DNA of 64,000 nucleotides from Candidatus Latescibacterota bacterium. GTDB taxonomy: Bacteria; Latescibacterota; UBA2968; GCA-2709665. The notes below the pieces were generated by a model, which worked only from the letters and a program-made list of their open reading frames with translations, did no database searches and was not told where the DNA came from. Positions 1,612 through 53,882 of the stretch are shown one piece after another (position 1 is the first letter of the stretch; each line of letters opens with the position of its first letter). Made by a program: the position numbers and the translations under genes. The stretch covers positions 352,001-416,000 of the forward strand of contig OZ244937.1 of assembly GCA_965222075.1 (NCBI GenBank), read 5' to 3'.

Positions 1612-3321
1612 CTAATACTTGCGTTCCTCAAGCTGCCAGCGGGTGATGGTCGCGGGAAGGTAATCGATACGGGGGCCGTCCTCTGTCTGGTAGGCCAGGG
1701 AGTGCTGGAGGTAGTGTTCGTCGTTCCGCATTTCAAAGTCCAAACGGGCGTGCGACCCCCGCGATTCCTCCCTTTGAAGCGCAGAATGCGCCACGGCCTC
1801 GGACACGTCCAGCATATATCCCAGTTCGAGCGCGGTGATGAGTTCTGTGTTGAATACGCCCGATCGATCGTCCAATCCCACGGTATCATAGCGCTCCTTG
1901 AGTTTTCGGAGCGTTTCGCACGTTTCTTTGAGTTTCTCCTGCGTGCGGTAGATACCGACGCCCTGTTCCATGGCGCTTTGCATTTCACTGCGGATGTCGG
2001 CGATCCGCTCGCTGCGGTTTTGCGGCCGGAAGTATTTGGCTTCGATCCGATTCTGCTCGTCGTGGGCCATATTCCGGAGTGTGCCGGGCCGGGGGGCCTC
2101 CGCTTCTGCGGCATAGGCTGCGGCCGATCTGCCGGCGCGGGTGCCAAAGACGAGACACTCGGAGAGGGAGTTGGACCCCAGGCGGTTTGCGCCGTTCAGG
2201 CTCACACAGGCGGCTTCCCCTGCGGCAAAGAGGCCCGGTATGGGCATGGCTCCGTTGATGTCTGTGTGCACGCCGCCCATCATGTAGTGGACGACCGGGC
2301 GGACGGGAATGGGTTCGTGGACGGGGTCGATGCCGACGTAGTTTCGGGTCAGTTCCCTCACGAAGGGGAGCTTCTCGTTGATGACTTTTTCGCCCAGGTG
2401 CCGAAGGTCCAGGTGGACGTAGTGCCCATAGGTCCCCTCGAAGGCCCGGCCTGCCCGCATTTCGTGGATAAAGGCCCGGGACAGGATATCGCGAGGGCCC
2501 AGTTCCATCTTGCCGGGCACGTATTCGCTCAGGTATCGTTCACCTTTGCTGTTGAGCAGATGGCCTCCCTCTCCCCGGGACGCCTCCGTCATCAGGATGC
2601 CGGTTCCGGGCAGGCCGGTGGGGTGGTACTGCACAAATTCCATGTCTTTCATTGGGCAGCCGGCACGGTAGGCCAGGGCCATGCCGTCTCCGGTTTTGAT
2701 GGCTGCATTGGTTGTGAAGGGGAAGACCCGGCCGCCGCCGCCGGTGCAGATGATGACCGCCTTTGCCGGAATGGCGTGAATGCCTCCGGAGCGCAGGTTG
2801 AGGGCGGCTACGCCGCAGACCTTTCCGTCGTCTATCAGCAGCGAAGTGACAAACCACTCGTCGTAGCGGGTGATGGCGTCGTATTTCAGGGAGGTCTGGA
2901 AGAGGGCGTGGAGCATGTGGAACCCGGTTTTGTCGGCGGCAAAGAGGGTTCGCTTTACGCTCATGCCTCCAAAGGCTCTCACACTCACCCGGCCGTCCGG
3001 GTCCCGGCTCCAGGGGCAGCCCCAGTGCTCCAGCTGGATGACTTCGTCCCGGGCCTCTTTTACAAAAGCTTCGACCACATCCTGGTCGGCCAGGAAATCG
3101 CTGCCCTTGATGGTGTCGTAGGCGTGCAGGTCCAGGTTGTCGTATTCGCGCATGACCGCGGCGGTTCCACCCTCGGCCGAGACGGTGTGGCTGCGCATGG
3201 GGTAAACCTTGGATACAACGCCGATGTTGATGCCTTCCCGGGCCTGGGCCGCTGCGATGGCGGCGCGCAGGCCGGCGGCGCCCCCCCCTACCAGCAGGAC
3301 ATCATGCGCTGGAATGTTCAT
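1612..3321 (-). CDS. frdA: Fumarate reductase/succinate dehydrogenase flavoprotein
   Basis: GGGAAG FAD motif, [10 protein letters not shown] covalent-FAD His, [28 protein letters not shown]. Confidence 0.95.
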
Positions 3322-27707: not shown

Positions 27708-27953
27708 ATGGAAAGCGAGAAGAAATACTGGCTGGATGAACCCGGCAATGTGAACAAGATCTGCTGGATGCTCTACGTTGTGTGCGCCCTTCTGGTTTTG
27801 GGCGATCTGGCTTACCACAAATATATCCACTTCAACATGGAGAACTGGTTCGGCTTTTATGGCTTTTACGGTTTTGTCGCCTGCGTGGGGCTGGTGGTGG
27901 CGGCCAAGGGGCTTCGCAGAATTCTAGGACGTAAGGAAGACTATTATGGTTGA
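27708..27953 (+). CDS. Small membrane protein of the Mrp cluster
   Basis: 81 aa, two hydrophobic segments, WLD.P.N and GFYGFYGF...R.EDYY; overlaps next gene. Confidence 0.7.
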   Translation: MESEKKYWLDEPGNVNKICWMLYVVCALLVLGDLAYHKYIHFNMENWFGFYGFYGFVACVGLVVAAKGLRRILGRKEDYYG

Positions 27954-29628
27954 TCAGCTTCCGCCAGCGTTCATCCTGATCTTCGGGGCGCTGCTGGTAC
28001 CGCTGCTGCGCGGGCGTCTGCAAGCGGCTTATATGCTGCTTTTACCGGTATTGGGGTTTGTCCATCTGGTTGGCCTTTCTCATGGTGCGTACTGGCAGAT
28101 GTCCATTTTTGACTACACCCTGACGCTGGTCCGGATCGATAAGCTCAGCCTTGTTTTCGGCTATATCTTCCATATTGCCGCCTTTCTCACCGTGGTCTAC
28201 GCCCTCCATGTGAAGGACAACACGCAGCATGTGGCCGGGCTGATTTACGTGGGGAGCGCAATTGGGGCCGTTTTTGCAGGCGATTTGATCACGCTGTTTG
28301 TGTACTGGGAACTCACGGCGGTCGCATCGGTGTTTCTGATCTGGAGCCGCCGGACCGAGCGTGCGTACGCCGCGGGTATGCGATACCTGATTGTCCAGGT
28401 GGGGTCAGGGGTTCTGCTGCTTGCGGGCACTCTTTTCCATCTCCAGGCAACCGGCTCGGTCGCGTTCAATTTCCTGGGGCTTAACAGCCTGGGGACCACG
28501 CTGATTTTTATTGCGTTTGGCATCAAGTGCGCGTTTCCTTTGCTCCACAGCTGGCTCCAGGATGCCTATCCCGAAGCAACGGTGACGGGGGCGGTGGTCC
28601 TGAGCGCTTTTACGACCAAGCTGGCGGTTTATGCCCTGGCGCGGGGTTTTCCGGGGACGGAAATTTTGATCCCGATCGGTGCGGTCATGGCCGCTTTTCC
28701 CATCTTCTATGCGGTGATCGAGAACGATCTCAGGCGTGTGCTGGCCCACAGCCTGAACAACCAGCTGGGCTTTATGGTTGTGGGCATCGGGATTGGAACG
28801 GAGATGGCGCTGAACGGCGCGGCGTCGCACGCGGTTGTCCATATTCTCTACAAAGCCCTGTTGTTTATGTCGATGGGCGCCGTGCTTTATCGGACGGGAA
28901 CCGTCAACGGATCGGAGCTGGGCGGGTTGTACAAATCCATGCCCTATACCACGGTCTTCTGTATTGTGGGCGCCGCTTCGATCTCGGCCTTTCCTTTTTT
29001 CAGCGGTTTTGTCACCAAGTCGATGATTGTTGCCGCAACGGCCGATGGGCACTATGTGCTTCCCTGGCTGGTGCTGCTGTTCGCCTCTGTGGCGGTGTAT
29101 GCGGGAATCAAGGTCCCCTTTTGCGCGTTTTTCGCCCACGATTCGGGGATGCGCTGCAAGGAGGCGCCCCTGAATATGCTGATCGCGATGGGGCTGACTG
29201 CGGCCCCGTGTATTCTGATCGGTATTTTCCCGAGACCCCTTTATCAGATGCTGCCCTACGCCGTGAATTACGATCCCTACACGACGAGCCACGTGATCAC
29301 GCAGTGGCAGCTTTTGTTCTGGTCCGGTCTGGCTTTCACGTTTTTAAAGCTAACGGGCATTTACCCGCCCGAGTTGAAGGCTGCGAATCTGGACAGCGAC
29401 TGGGTCTACCGCCGGTTGCTGCCCGTCACGGTCAACACCTTCGTGCGGGTCGGCGGTCCGGTGCGCGATAGCGTCCTGGGTAGCTTCAAGACGCAGATTG
29501 GCGTGGTGATCGCCGGCATACACCAGGTTCACGGACCCCAGGGTATTCTGGCGCGAACCTGGCTTACTGGCAGTGCGGTGCTGCTGGTCACGATTTTCCT
29601 GGCGGCCTATTTGATCTTTTATTTTTAA
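27946..29628 (+). CDS. Mrp subunit D/A-like antiporter subunit (copy 3)
   Basis: FVYWELT, PLLHSWLQDAYPEAT, FTTK, HILYKALL, SGFVTKS. Confidence 0.88.
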   Translation: MVDQLPPAFILIFGALLVPLLRGRLQAAYMLLLPVLGFVHLVGLSHGAYWQMSIFDYTLTLVRIDKLSLVFGYIFHIAAFLTVVYALHVKDNTQHVAGLIYVGSAIGAVFAGDLITLFVYWELTAVASVFLIWSRRTERAYAAGMRYLIVQVGSGVLLLAGTLFHLQATGSVAFNFLGLNSLGTTLIFIAFGIKCAFPLLHSWLQDAYPEATVTGAVVLSAFTTKLAVYALARGFPGTEILIPIGAVMAAFPIFYAVIENDLRRVLAHSLNNQLGFMVVGIGIGTEMALNGAASHAVVHILYKALLFMSMGAVLYRTGTVNGSELGGLYKSMPYTTVFCIVGAASISAFPFFSGFVTKSMIVAATADGHYVLPWLVLLFASVAVYAGIKVPFCAFFAHDSGMRCKEAPLNMLIAMGLTAAPCILIGIFPRPLYQMLPYAVNYDPYTTSHVITQWQLLFWSGLAFTFLKLTGIYPPELKAANLDSDWVYRRLLPVTVNTFVRVGGPVRDSVLGSFKTQIGVVIAGIHQVHGPQGILARTWLTGSAVLLVTIFLAAYLIFYF

Positions 29629-29658
29629 GAACCCGGGTTCAGCTGTTCTTTTGCTTTT

Positions 29659-29719
29659 GGCCTTTTTCTTGTTCGCCCAGGAAAAAGGCCGAAAAAGAAG
29701 GGCGCCTGCCTGCGTGGCG
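29659..29719. repeat. 61-bp structured dispersed repeat (inverted copy of 39157-39217)
   Basis: Reverse complement matches 39157-39217 with 3 mismatches; contains hairpin GGCCTTTTTC-N12-GAAAAAGGCC. Confidence 0.85.
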
Positions 29720-36683: not shown

Positions 36684-38102
<1,419 letters not shown>

Positions 38103-38139
38103 GGACCGGGGTGGATAGAACACTGATTGCGAGCATGCG

Positions 38140-38577
38140 ATGCCGATGTTTCAGCTTGAGATCGTGACGCCCGAAAAGACGGTTTATTCGGGCAGGGTGG
38201 AGAGCCTGCGGGCGCCCGGCACCGAGGGCGGGTTCGGTGTGCTGGCCGGGCACCATCCGATGCTGGCATCGCTGGATGTGGGGCAGATTATGTTCAGGCC
38301 TGCCTGCCGAGCAGGTGTCGGCGCAGGCAGGGAGGAGGGGGAGGGGCCGAAGGTGGCGGCCACCAGCGGTGGGTTCGCCCAGGTCCAGCGGGATAGTGTG
38401 ACCGTGCTGGCGGAGACGGCCGAGCTGGCCGGGGAGATCGATGTGGCGCGGGCGGAAGCGGCGCGGGACCGGGCGCGGGAGCGGCTGGCCCGGCGGCGGG
38501 AGGCGGAGGTTGATGCGGTACGGGCGGAGATGGCGCTTGTGCGGGCGCTGAACCGGTTGCGGGTGGGGGAACAATGA
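38140..38577 (+). CDS. atpC: ATP synthase F1 epsilon with an 11-aa in-frame insertion
   Basis: LEIVTPE, EGGFGVLAGH, SGGFA, C-terminal helical hairpin. Confidence 0.95.
   Translation: MPMFQLEIVTPEKTVYSGRVESLRAPGTEGGFGVLAGHHPMLASLDVGQIMFRPACRAGVGAGREEGEGPKVAATSGGFAQVQRDSVTVLAETAELAGEIDVARAEAARDRARERLARRREAEVDAVRAEMALVRALNRLRVGEQ
38299..38331. repeat. 33-bp palindromic element inserted in-frame in atpC
   Basis: CCTGCCTGC-N15-GCAGGCAGG; same length and architecture as 39024-39056 and 39139-39171. Confidence 0.85.
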
Positions 38578-38610
38578 GGGGATAGCGCGAAGGTTAGCAG
38601 GGAATACCAC

Positions 38611-38644
38611 AGGAGCGGGTTTGAAACCCGCTCCTCTTTTTTTT
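38611..38644 (+). terminator. Rho-independent terminator of the atp operon
   Basis: AGGAGCGGGTTT-G-AAACCCGCTCCT followed by C and T8. Confidence 0.85.
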
Positions 38645-39023
38645 GCAGGCAGGGGTGTAAGTGCTTACGCGGAATTGGAGTTCCTCTTTCTGTAAAAATT
38701 GCGTAAATTAAAAGGACGAATGAGGGTCAATAAGCCGCCCTTGCCGGGCGACCTGCCGAAGAAGTGACCAGGCCTCCGGCGATAAGAAAGGCAGGGTGGA
38801 GCGCGACGCAGATCCGCTATGAAGAAGAGTAAGAAGTTGTCATGTGCCCTTTGGGGCACCCATGATGATGAAAAGAGTTGCGTTGGCAGACTTGTACTGT
38901 AACCATACATGCCCTCTCACGCGTTTCGCCTCCCGCGCCTTCGCTGCGGGGTTGAAGGGGCTTTTCCGCGCGGTTCCGTCCAGCGCCTTCGCCTCGGGAA
39001 TCCCCAAGCGCTCGCAGGGCAGA

Positions 39024-39056
39024 CCTGCCTGTGCCGTGCCCGGCACGGCAGACAGG
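39024..39056. repeat. 33-bp palindromic element (intergenic)
   Basis: CCTGCCTGTGCCGTGCCCGGCACGGCAGACAGG; reverse complement is 26/33 identical to the atpC insert. Confidence 0.8.
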
Positions 39057-39138
39057 AGCTCCCGCTTCCACCACAGGCAACACTAACCATTCAAACCAAT
39101 CCAGGCAATTTGCGGAAAAGCAGCCGCCGTCTGAGCGG

Positions 39139-39217
39139 CCTGCCTGCAGCGCGGTGCGCCGCGCAGGCAGGCGCCCTTCTTTTTCGGCCTTTTTCTTGGG
39201 CGATCAAGAAAAAGGCC
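39139..39217. repeat. 33-bp palindromic element (39139-39171) fused to a T-rich hairpin repeat
   Basis: CCTGCCTGCAGCGCGGTGCGCCGCGCAGGCAGG followed by sequence shared with 29659-29719. Confidence 0.8.
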
Positions 39218-39385
39218 TCGCCGAAGGCATGGGGACGAAGGGCGGGGAGGAGTTGCGGATGACGGAGACCGCGCGGGACTGAGCGACAAGGCCATCTACC
39301 GAAAGGTTATTTTCCAAGCACTAATCGCGTTGGACTCAAATCTGTGCCTCGCAAGCAACGCATCACCAGAGAGAGGACGGCAACC

Positions 39386-39934
39386 ATGGCTATCCCCAAT
39401 CCTGTAGTCAAGTTTACCTGCGAAGACTACCTGAATACGCCGGAAGACAAGCGCTACGAGCTTCTGGACGGAGAATTGATTATGACCCCTGCACCTGGAG
39501 AGCTTCACCAGAGCATTTCCATCCTGCTGGGATCGAAACTGTTTCAATTTGTGGATGAGAACAGCCTGGGGCGGGTGTATAACGCTCCCTTCGATGTGGT
39601 GCTGTCGGATACGGACGTGGTGCAGCCGGACCTGCTCTTCGTCTCCAATGCGCGCGGCCACATTATCACTCCCGAGAATATACAGGGTGCACCGGACCTG
39701 GTTATCGAAATCCTGTCGCCCTCTACGGCCACACGCGACAGGACATTCAAGCGCACACTGTATGCCAGGCACGGCGTGAAAGAGTACTGGATGGTGGACA
39801 CCACCGCAAAAGACATAACGGTTCTGCTGCTCGGTGATCGAGGATTCGAGGTTGTGGACACCTGCGGTGAAGGGGAGGCGTTGACTTCGCCTACATTGCA
39901 AGGCTTCAGATTGAACCTCGACGACATATTCTAA
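39386..39934 (+). CDS. Uma2 family (PD-(D/E)XK-like) endonuclease
   Basis: TPEDKRYELLDGEL, VQPDLLFV, GAPDLVIEILSPST, GVKEYWMVD. Confidence 0.92.
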   Translation: MAIPNPVVKFTCEDYLNTPEDKRYELLDGELIMTPAPGELHQSISILLGSKLFQFVDENSLGRVYNAPFDVVLSDTDVVQPDLLFVSNARGHIITPENIQGAPDLVIEILSPSTATRDRTFKRTLYARHGVKEYWMVDTTAKDITVLLLGDRGFEVVDTCGEGEALTSPTLQGFRLNLDDIF

Positions 39935-40496: not shown

Positions 40497-40673
40497 GTCC
40501 GTAAGGTTGATGTCACTGATCGCCTCAATATACGGATTCGCAGCGCAGAAGGGGACTACAGTATTTCTGTCTGAATTGCGTGCCCGCAGGCGGATTTGCG
40601 GCTACAAGTCAGTGAATCTGCGCCAGGGCTATCCGCTTCTTGAGATCAGGATACCTGAGCAGGTTTGCGCCGT

Positions 40674-40885
40674 GCAAGCAACGTATCACCAGAGAGAGGA
40701 CGGCAACCATGGCTATCCCCAATCCTGTAGTCAAGTTTACCTACGAAGACTACCTGAATACGCCGGAAGACAAGCGTTACGAGCTTTTGGACGGAGAGTT
40801 GATTATGACCCCTGCGCCTGGAGAACTTCACCAGAGCGTTTCCGCCCAGTTAGGGTGGAGATTGGTTCAGTTCGCATCTGAGAAC
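40674..40885 (+). pseudogene. Truncated second Uma2 copy (leader plus N-terminus)
   Basis: Near-identical to 39351-39520 then diverges; breaks off after about 59 codons (ATG 40709). Confidence 0.85.
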
Positions 40886-40926
40886 CGACGGCACGTTCTT
40901 GCGTGCTCCAGTTAAGGAGGGTTGCC

Positions 40927-46327: not shown

Positions 46328-46475
46328 GGATAGACAGGATAGACAGGATAGACAGGATAGACAGGATAGACAGGATAGACAGGATAGACAGGATAGACAG
46401 GATAGACAGGATAGACAGGATAGATAGGATAGACAGGATAGATAGGATAGACAGGATAGACAGGATAGACAGGAT
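46328..46475 (+). repeat. 9-bp tandem repeat (GGATAGACA)x16.4; expanded left arm of the palindromic element
   Basis: Period-9 array; units 11 and 13 are GGATAGATA variants. Confidence 0.97.
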
Positions 46476-46481
46476 GAGAAG

Positions 46482-46862
46482 ATGCTGCACGCGAGGCTGA
46501 CTCGCTCGATTATCGGGTGCGCGTTTGAGGTGATCAATGAGCTTGGGAGCGGGTTTTTGGAATCCGTATATGAGAAGGCGATGATGGTTGCTCTATCCGA
46601 TGTCGGAGTTTCCTTTGAGGTCCAAAAGCCCATCGGAGTGAGTTTTCGTGGAAAGCCCGTTGGCGATTTCTACGCGGATATTCTTGTCGAAGACAAAGTG
46701 ATCGTCGAACTCAAAGCGGTGAAGGCTCTGGCGCCAGAGCATGAAGCCCAGGTCATCAACTATTTGAATGCGACCGGCGTCGAGGTCGGACTGCTGATCA
46801 ACTTCGGGAGTCCGAGACTGGAATTCAAACGCTTTACACGGAGTAAGAATAAACATGGATAG
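46482..46862 (+). CDS. GxxExxY family PD-(D/E)XK-like protein
   Basis: LGSGFLESVYE (GxxExxY), ADILVEDKVIVELKA, QVINYL, GLLINFG. Confidence 0.93.
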   Translation: MLHARLTRSIIGCAFEVINELGSGFLESVYEKAMMVALSDVGVSFEVQKPIGVSFRGKPVGDFYADILVEDKVIVELKAVKALAPEHEAQVINYLNATGVEVGLLINFGSPRLEFKRFTRSKNKHG

Positions 46863-46912
46863 ACAGGATGGACAGGATAGAATCAACGGCCTGAAATCCT
46901 GTTCATCCATGT
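46853..46912. repeat. Palindromic element copy after GxxExxY
   Basis: ACATGGATAGACAGGATGGACAGGAT...CCTGAAATCCTGTTCATCCATGT. Confidence 0.85.
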
Positions 46913-46936
46913 GAATAAATCAGAAGACGGGAGTTA

Positions 46937-47161
46937 GTGATGACCAGACAGTTGACAGCAATTATCGAACGCGAAGGCGATGGCTACGTCGCCCTCTGCG
47001 CTGAGTTGGACATTGCGAGTCAGGGGGCAACCGTGGCTGAGGCTCGGGAAAATTTGAAGGAGGCATTGGAGTTGTTTTTCGAGACGGCTTCAGCCACCGA
47101 AATTCAGCAGCGGCTGCACGAGGAAGTGTACGTAACGCAGGTGGAGGTCGCAGTTGGCTAA
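46937..47161 (+). CDS. hicB: HicB family antitoxin (short)
   Basis: EREGDGYVALC.ELDIASQG.T..EA..NL.EA. Confidence 0.88.
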   Translation: MMTRQLTAIIEREGDGYVALCAELDIASQGATVAEARENLKEALELFFETASATEIQQRLHEEVYVTQVEVAVG

Positions 47162-47372
47162 ACTCCGGGTATTATCAGGCCGGGAAGCCTGCGGAATACT
47201 TGCGAATCACGGATTTATCGAGGTCCGGCGCAGGGGTAGCCATGTAATCATGCAAAAGGTCGAGCCCAGCAGCACCATCACCGTCCCGGTTCCTGACCAC
47301 AGGGAACTGCGGATGGGAACGCTGATGTCAATCATTAGGCAATCGGGGCTGCCCAGAACATTGTTCGAGTAA
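47154..47372 (+). CDS. hicA: HicA family toxin
   Basis: GF.EVRRRGSH, VPVPDH.EL..GTL.SIIRQSG. Confidence 0.88.
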   Translation: MAKLRVLSGREACGILANHGFIEVRRRGSHVIMQKVEPSSTITVPVPDHRELRMGTLMSIIRQSGLPRTLFE

Positions 47373-53351: not shown

Positions 53352-53422
53352 AGATGGATAAACAGGATAGACAGGATGAAAACTGAAAGCCCTGAAATCC
53401 TGTTCATCCTGTCCATCCATGT
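53352..53422. repeat. Palindromic element, empty copy
   Basis: ATGGATAAACAGGATAGACAGGAT...ATCCTGTTCATCCTGTCCATCCATGT. Confidence 0.9.
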
Positions 53423-53446
53423 GAATAAATCAGAAGACGGGAACTG

Positions 53447-53671
53447 GTGATGACCAGACAGTTGACAGCAATTATCGAACGCGAAGGCGATGGCTACGTC
53501 GCCCTCTGCCCTGAGTTGGACATCGCGAGTCAGGGAGCAACCGTGGCTGAGGCTCGGGAAAATTTGAAGGAGGCATTGGAGTTGTTTTTCGAGACGGCTT
53601 CAGCCACCGAAATTCAGCAGCGGCTGCACGAGGAAGTGTACGTAACGCAGGTGGAGGTCGCAGTTGGCTAA
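53447..53671 (+). CDS. hicB: HicB family antitoxin (duplicate)
   Basis: One aa different from 46937-47161. Confidence 0.88.
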   Translation: MMTRQLTAIIEREGDGYVALCPELDIASQGATVAEARENLKEALELFFETASATEIQQRLHEEVYVTQVEVAVG

Positions 53672-53882
53672 ACTCCGGGTATTATCGGGCCGGGAAGCCT
53701 GCGGAATACTTGCGAATCACGGATTTACCGAGGTCCGGCGCAGGGGCAGCCATGTAATCATGCAAAAGGTCGAGCCCAGCAGCACCATCACCGTCCCGGT
53801 TCCTGACCACGGGGAACTGCGGACGGGAACGCTGATGTCAATCATTAGGCAATCAGGGTTGCCCAGAACTCTGTTCGAGTAA
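53664..53882 (+). CDS. hicA: HicA family toxin (duplicate)
   Basis: Three aa different from 47154-47372. Confidence 0.88.
   Translation: MAKLRVLSGREACGILANHGFTEVRRRGSHVIMQKVEPSSTITVPVPDHGELRTGTLMSIIRQSGLPRTLFE

Follow-up and report, generated by a model that had tools for sequence, protein, structure and literature searches.

The intact atp operon in the stretch of DNA analyzed here (64 kb of a Latescibacterota genome; hereafter, the window) ends with an epsilon subunit gene that carries a 33-bp palindromic insert. This locus raises the question of what the insert is and how it entered an essential gene. It is probably a copy of a nonautonomous, REP-like hairpin microelement. The features around it were as follows.

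38140 to 38577, plus strand: atpC, F1Fo ATP synthase epsilon subunit, 145 aa (TIGR01216 above the cutoff; PDB matches; Foldseek TM score of 0.83 to 2e5y).
38299 to 38331, minus strand in the family orientation: CCTG-tagged hairpin element, 33 bp, in frame, atpC codons 54 to 64.
38295 to 38298, plus strand: CAGG repeating the end of the element, a junction microhomology.
38611 to 38653, plus strand: terminator-like hairpin and T run after atpC, then a lone right arm (38645 to 38653), as read from the sequence.

Codons are counted from the ATG at 38140 (an alternative start lies at 38146). An earlier note on this DNA had given the position, sequence, and frame of the insert correctly and had predicted an 11-aa gap in alignments with close homologs, which was found. 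The homolog search yielded 2922 proteins, and the comparison was made on the best 120 of these. Across the insert site, the window protein has 35 residues versus 23 to 25 in all 119 nonself homologs (24 in 113 of them), none of which has an equally long loop. Named homologs among the best 120 of 2922 belong to Latescibacteria and Gemmatimonadota genomes; the two closest relatives in this set are 93 to 94% identical outside the gap and exactly 11 aa shorter at the site. The alignment places the entry of the element into atpC after the split from these relatives. In an AlphaFold model of the protein with its insert (mean pLDDT, 82.9), the epsilon fold is kept, and the insert lengthens the turn between strands 48 to 54 and 71 to 75, with a pLDDT of <50 at residues 59 to 67. 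The sequence of this turn is free to vary among homologs, so the site is permissive. The modeled site is a variable beta-turn in an otherwise intact predicted fold, in line with the surface loop that had been proposed.

The family pattern occurs at exactly three places in the 64-kb window versus 0.02 expected by chance, and a relaxed scan of the window revealed no further copies. Three full copies and one partial copy thus lie within 64 kb, the last three of them in the following context.

39024 to 39056, plus strand: intergenic family member, 33 bp, T9/A class, 33/33 identical to an element in another Latescibacterota genome (L031).
39139 to 39171, minus strand: intergenic family member, 33 bp, at a G|C site within a larger host repeat (pattern match).
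39172 to 39217, no strand assigned: host repeat with an A/T-tract hairpin (39186 to 39217), adjoining the 39139 element; 61-nt, 95% inverted match to 29659 to 29719.
29655 to 29719, no strand assigned: second copy of the host repeat, with one element arm only (29705 to 29713), between an antiporter-D-like gene and nuoN.

The two intergenic copies listed in the earlier note are real and 33 bp each. Its truncated copy at 29705 proved to be a single arm, the rest of the resemblance being about 50 nt of flank that the second host-repeat copy has in common with the 39139 copy. Two other Latescibacterota genomes, L046 and L029, have elements that match the atpC insert at 30/33 positions. An Rfam search over 37800 to 39600 gave no match at E values up to 1. 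The lone right arm at 38645 to 38653, directly after the T run of the atp terminator, may be a remnant or a chance occurrence.

The host repeat with its A/T-tract hairpin (29655 to 29719 and 39157 to 39217; positions 2953 to 3070 in L046) is common to the window and another Latescibacterota genome, and it may itself constitute a family of mobile repeats. In L046, the repeat that hosts the window copy at 39139 carries a different element in the opposite orientation, which suggests independent hits on one host repeat; an inversion followed by divergence is the alternative.

Copies beyond the window were sought in GTDB genomes with the pattern CCTGYCTGYGC-N(7-22)-GCAGRCAGG, which fixes the arms and both GC dinucleotides and limits lengths to 27 to 42 bp. 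The scan gave at least 129 matches at at least 123 loci from at least 104 genomes, or at least 126 elements after the collapse of 3 nested matches. All counts "of 126" below rest on these at least 126 listed matches, an arbitrary sample that includes some chance matches (52 to 1009 are expected for the pattern in all of GTDB). Among the matches listed, elements were found in Latescibacterota (at least 6 genomes), Desulfobacterales, Planctomycetota, Verrucomicrobiota, Bacteroidota, Nitrospirota, Spirochaetaceae, Zetaproteobacteria, Chloroflexota, Patescibacteria, and WOR-3. Some of the records are complete chromosomes, and most are metagenome bins, so some taxon labels may be wrong. Seven matches are suspected to be chance (L103, which matches a TnpB zinc-finger motif, L044, L070, L088, L100, L111, and L120); they were left out of the flank profile and kept in the 126. 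Shorter forms of 16 to 21 bp are present in the same loci as the 27- to 42-bp elements. Searches of plasmids and phages (blastn) gave weak partial matches alone, with E values of 0.1 to 0.9.

One 27-mer is unchanged in at least 8 loci from distant taxa. The family is a mobile microelement, and its mobility has been recent. The earlier note had called the element active; mobility is supported and present activity is not, given that the window copies are at best 26/33 identical to one another and that no transposase was found near any copy.

The fold of the element is asymmetric. A 5' CCTG tail leads into a basal stem of 5 bp (CCTGY/RCAGG), above which lie a 2-nt bulge (AG) and an inner hairpin that varies between copies. 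The tag is present in all window copies and throughout the family alignment, where the search pattern itself imposes it. Covariation links position 9 to the fifth-last base (T/A in 79, C/G in 38, and other combinations in 9; Watson-Crick in 117 of at least 126), and position 5, the symmetric partner, shows no covariation. The change at position 9 and the fifth-last base may be a single ancestral one. On 14 distinct 33-mers, the tagged register had 4 pairs with two-sided changes, a score reached by none of 500 shuffles. A symmetric inverted-repeat fold was rejected as the conserved structure, as no pair in it had two-sided changes on the same 14 sequences. The compensatory A-T/T-A pair reported earlier is real, and the covariation supports the tagged fold rather than the simple inverted repeat then described. 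The outer arms are at most 9 bp long, with full complementarity in the C9 class and imperfect pairing in the T9 class. The atpC copy belongs to the C9 class, and for 39/39 sequences of that class the symmetric fold is more stable than the tagged one, by about 2 kcal/mol.

Insertion leaves no target duplication; the family favors purine|pyrimidine junctions, G|C most of all, and often lands within other hairpins or its own copies. The junction is purine|pyrimidine in 84 of at least 126 elements versus a 24% background (G|C in 40, G|T in 24, and A|C in 12), with G before the element in 80 and C after it in 65. In a filtered flank profile (n = 95; 31 dropped as self-adjacent, with T at position 5, with a short flank, or as suspected chance matches), G precedes in 59/95 and C follows in 50/95. 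The site of the 39139 copy inside the host repeat is G|C; the atpC junction is C|C in the family orientation and fits the preference on one side only. For 5 elements, empty sites were found with a gap of exactly the clean removal length each; matches for 2 others were uninformative. Target-site duplication was rejected because duplication lengths match those of shuffled flanks up to 4 nt (at least 126 elements) and empty sites are clean; long duplications (7 to 9 nt) occur in three elements, all within tandem arrays. The CAGG repeat at atpC exists, yet its reading as a duplicated target is not supported: the two other window copies have no such repeat, and a 4-nt junction repeat is present in 3 of at least 126 elements. 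Empty-site flanks fold strongly in 32/121 cases versus 20/242 background windows. Of at least 126 elements, 19 are self-adjacent (next to or inside another copy), 7 lie near CGTC-REP-like words, which look like targets and not relatives, and 5 lie in tandem arrays. Nested or side-by-side family copies were seen in L027 (157 to 186), L079 (3001 to 3030), L005, L049, L069, and L090.

We propose that an enzyme encoded at another locus would cleave and rejoin copies in the form of single-stranded hairpins, the plausible route at a size of about 33 bp. Insertion at G|C would recreate G|C at both ends, and such a copy could be excised again. Y1/HUH enzymes act on bulged hairpins with a tag at the base, with precise ends and no duplication, and we therefore favor an HUH-type enzyme; a trans-acting HUH/Y1 (IS200/RAYT-like) nuclease would be the most likely class, with a chance that we place just short of even. 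In PMC6006769 and PMC8266576, Y1 substrates are bulged hairpins with a tetranucleotide at their base; PMC8266576 treats the movement of REP-like elements as unresolved. No Y1/RAYT or GIY-YIG gene was found with Pfam among 189/226 neighboring ORFs or 35/72 window genes, and clustering of 3497 ORFs revealed no recurrent enzyme family near the copies. In L071, an element (3001 to 3027) lies in the 3' end of an IS91-family (Y2 HUH) transposase ORF, a single case and probably a target.

Two other routes are each unlikely. In the first, a site-specific recombinase of the IS607-like serine, IS110-like, or integron-like tyrosine kind would mobilize the same element, with exchange at a 2-bp GC core common to the circle junction and the target. 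Enzymes of these types exchange strands at a dinucleotide core, and the symmetric preference for G before and C after is what the center of a head-to-tail junction would show; the lack of duplication and the use of one site in both orientations agree. However, 33 bp of double-stranded DNA cannot bend into a circle, no recombinase recurs near the copies (ISL3, IS91, and tyrosine recombinase genes occur once each), and the C|C junction at atpC departs from the proposed core. Equally doubtful is movement with no dedicated enzyme, in which existing copies or their transcripts would serve as donors for template switching or repair at sites of hairpins and tandem repeats. The excess of strongly folding flanks, the self-adjacent copies, those near CGTC-REP-like words or in arrays, and the failure to find an enzyme in the neighboring ORFs and window genes covered are all in its favor; against it are the precise ends, the nonhomologous sites (unrelated genes included), and the 27-mer found unchanged in distant taxa.

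A further alternative, implied by the earlier note, is a classical MITE with terminal inverted repeats, moved by a DDE transposase, with CAGG as a 4-bp target duplication. The repeated CAGG at atpC and the perfectly complementary 9-bp arms of the C9 class recall this design, which is very improbable given the lack of any duplication excess up to 4 nt, the other window copies that have no CAGG repeat, the arms without symmetric covariation, and a length of 33 bp, below the smallest cellular MITEs (41 to 49 bp in the available part of PMC11602168). As described in the portions of PMC3184786 and PMC11602168 covered here, bacterial MITEs are likewise nonautonomous and fold back, with filled and empty sites; they differ in their 2- to 10-bp target duplications, in their inverted arms (at least 10 to 15 bp versus at most 9 bp here), and in size, the CCTG element being below the range reported in PMC11602168.

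The anatomy is REP-like. In PMC3733652, PMC6006769, and PMC8266576, GTAG REPs with their RAYT/TnpAREP enzymes are imperfect hairpins of 20 to 50 nt with a 5'-foot tetranucleotide and a 1- to 3-nt bulge, mostly intergenic, with some copies in frame inside genes. The long-hairpin anatomy of PMC6006769 (tetranucleotide, stem, bulge, and upper stem) is found here as well, with a basal stem of 5 bp versus 7 to 20 bp. In contrast to GTAG/GTGG REPs, the tag here is CCTG; the boundaries of the element coincide exactly with the tag and the foot of the stem; the preferred site is G|C versus C|T; no RAYT was found near the elements in the ORFs and genes covered; and identical copies cross phyla, whereas REPs are species specific according to the portion of PMC6006769 consulted. 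The guide rule of the REPtron (PMC8266576, in part), applied to CCTG, predicts cuts at C|A or C|G, and the observed junctions are most often G|C.

CGTC REPs, as covered in part of PMC3733652, are also short tagged palindromes for which no dedicated transposase has been identified, with intragenic copies in conserved genes, including dnaE in Rickettsia conorii; tag and sequence differ, and no CGTC tag is present at the element end. Intragenic GTAG and CGTC REPs are both documented there, the latter including the Rickettsia elements RPE-4 and RPE-6. The precedent invoked in the earlier note, in-frame palindromes, holds for Rickettsia elements (PMC10969869) and intragenic REPs (PMC3733652), as far as the available portions go. 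The Rickettsia palindromic elements of about 150 bp (same sources) also enter unrelated housekeeping proteins in frame and in a fold-compatible way; the CCTG element is one fifth of their size, is set apart by size and tag, and is not confined to a genus, and its coding share is 6 of at least 126 on firm assignment versus nearly half there.

The CCTG element works like known repeats, but its tag, its size, and the lack of duplication keep it from being a member of any of them. Full-text literature searches, which do not reach figures, bioRxiv supplements, some other supplements, and most subscription papers, found neither a CCTG-tagged family nor lengths in multiples of 3 (3n) among intergenic copies, and an earlier description may exist. 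CCTG is absent from the main text of PMC3733652, PMC6006769, PMC8266576, and PMC11602168; the supplements of PMC3733652 yielded nothing, and those of PMC6006769 yielded one unrelated GTGG REP. A single in-frame insertion is of an already known kind, and it is the cross-phylum family, the length periodicity, and the missing enzyme that set the find apart.

In-frame colonization is a minority outcome: among 129 spanning ORFs scanned, 6 of at least 126 elements lie firmly in frame within a Pfam domain, all of 3n length. They occupy an fn3 domain, two HATPase domains of histidine kinases (probably one event), DnaE, TsaD, and a polyprenyl synthase. Together with atpC, they show that the element has entered unrelated conserved proteins in frame. 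Alignment with solved structures gives a gap of exactly 12 aa at the 36-bp copy in DnaE and of exactly 11 aa at the 33-bp copy in the prenyl synthase; TsaD (L087, 301 to 330) has about 27 extra residues because its 30-bp element sits in a 7-bp tandem array. Six further elements lie at uncertain positions in Pfam-bearing ORFs, one probably by chance. None of the 26 non-3n copies lies inside a Pfam domain in the same scan, and four of them inspected by eye showed no clear broken gene.

The 3n length that the earlier note saw in a few copies holds family-wide, in 100 of at least 126 elements, with peaks at 27 (39 elements), 30 (36), and 33 bp (16) and none at 31 or 35 bp. A few successful subfamilies dominate, so these observations are not independent; among the matches listed, 3n lengths make up 75/95 distinct sequences and 82 to 86 of 104 when one element is drawn per genome. 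The bias is found in both arm classes (52/62 and 28/33) and, among the matches listed, also in elements without a spanning ORF of 95 aa (39/42) or of 70 aa (20/22) and outside heuristically called genes (39/48). Geometry would not account for it: a hairpin lengthens two bases at a time, and there are 28- and 29-mers. Stop codons in the inner part are only weakly depleted (21/95 versus 26 when shuffled; 28/300 shuffles as low), and the arms are stop free; given the usual 3n length, a hit in a permissive loop thus leaves the protein whole. We infer that 3n lengths were selected since frame-preserving lineages cost the host less.

In atpC, the insert would be a tolerated passenger. An adaptive role, whether in the mRNA as a hairpin or in the protein as an added surface loop that tunes epsilon, might be read from its retention in an essential gene and its stable folding (z of about -2.8), but is highly improbable for a sequence absent from the 119 nonself homologs, with a low-pLDDT loop, whose family also occurs in unrelated genes and spacers. 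An assembly or sequencing artifact is scarcely credible, as the ends of the insert are exactly those of the family, its inner sequence is distinct, and the frame is preserved, and the identical protein occurs on 3 contigs (the longest 5.46 Mb), which are perhaps not independent.

For the family as a whole, we tentatively suggest that CCTG marks another superfamily of tagged hairpins, in addition to the GTAG and CGTC REPs. Its members would be replicators of some 20 to 40 bp that cross phyla by means of a single-strand enzyme and whose lengths have evolved in threes, even outside genes, as a form of translation neutrality. If so, they would be a standing source of short peptide insertions in the core proteins of many uncultured lineages. 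A preference for 3n that extends beyond genes would point to selection at the level of the element lineage. The family is a testable substrate in that its ends are sharp, it prefers certain sites, and empty sites exist in nature; co-occurrence offers a way to its enzyme. In metagenome-assembled genomes, CCTG inserts account for short gaps in core proteins, and they could be taken for conserved signature indels.

Other repeats were observed in the window. About 16 copies of a 9-bp tandem repeat (46328 to 46475) run into a PDDEXK_3 (GxxExxY) gene (46482 to 46859). Hairpin-like repeats related to this array lie at 46841, 47459, 50080, 53340, 61610, and 63369, and two family elements in L031 target the same repeat type. 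A Uma2 gene (39344 to 39931) and its truncated duplicate (40640 to 40912), 88% identical over 220 nt, flank a HicAB pair. A 300-nt module (46896 to 47195 and 53406 to 53705), 97% identical and with a HicA gene in each copy, is duplicated in a region of type I restriction-modification and GmrSD genes. The Na+/H+ antiporter subunit D-like gene (27946 to 29628) lies immediately before nuoN.
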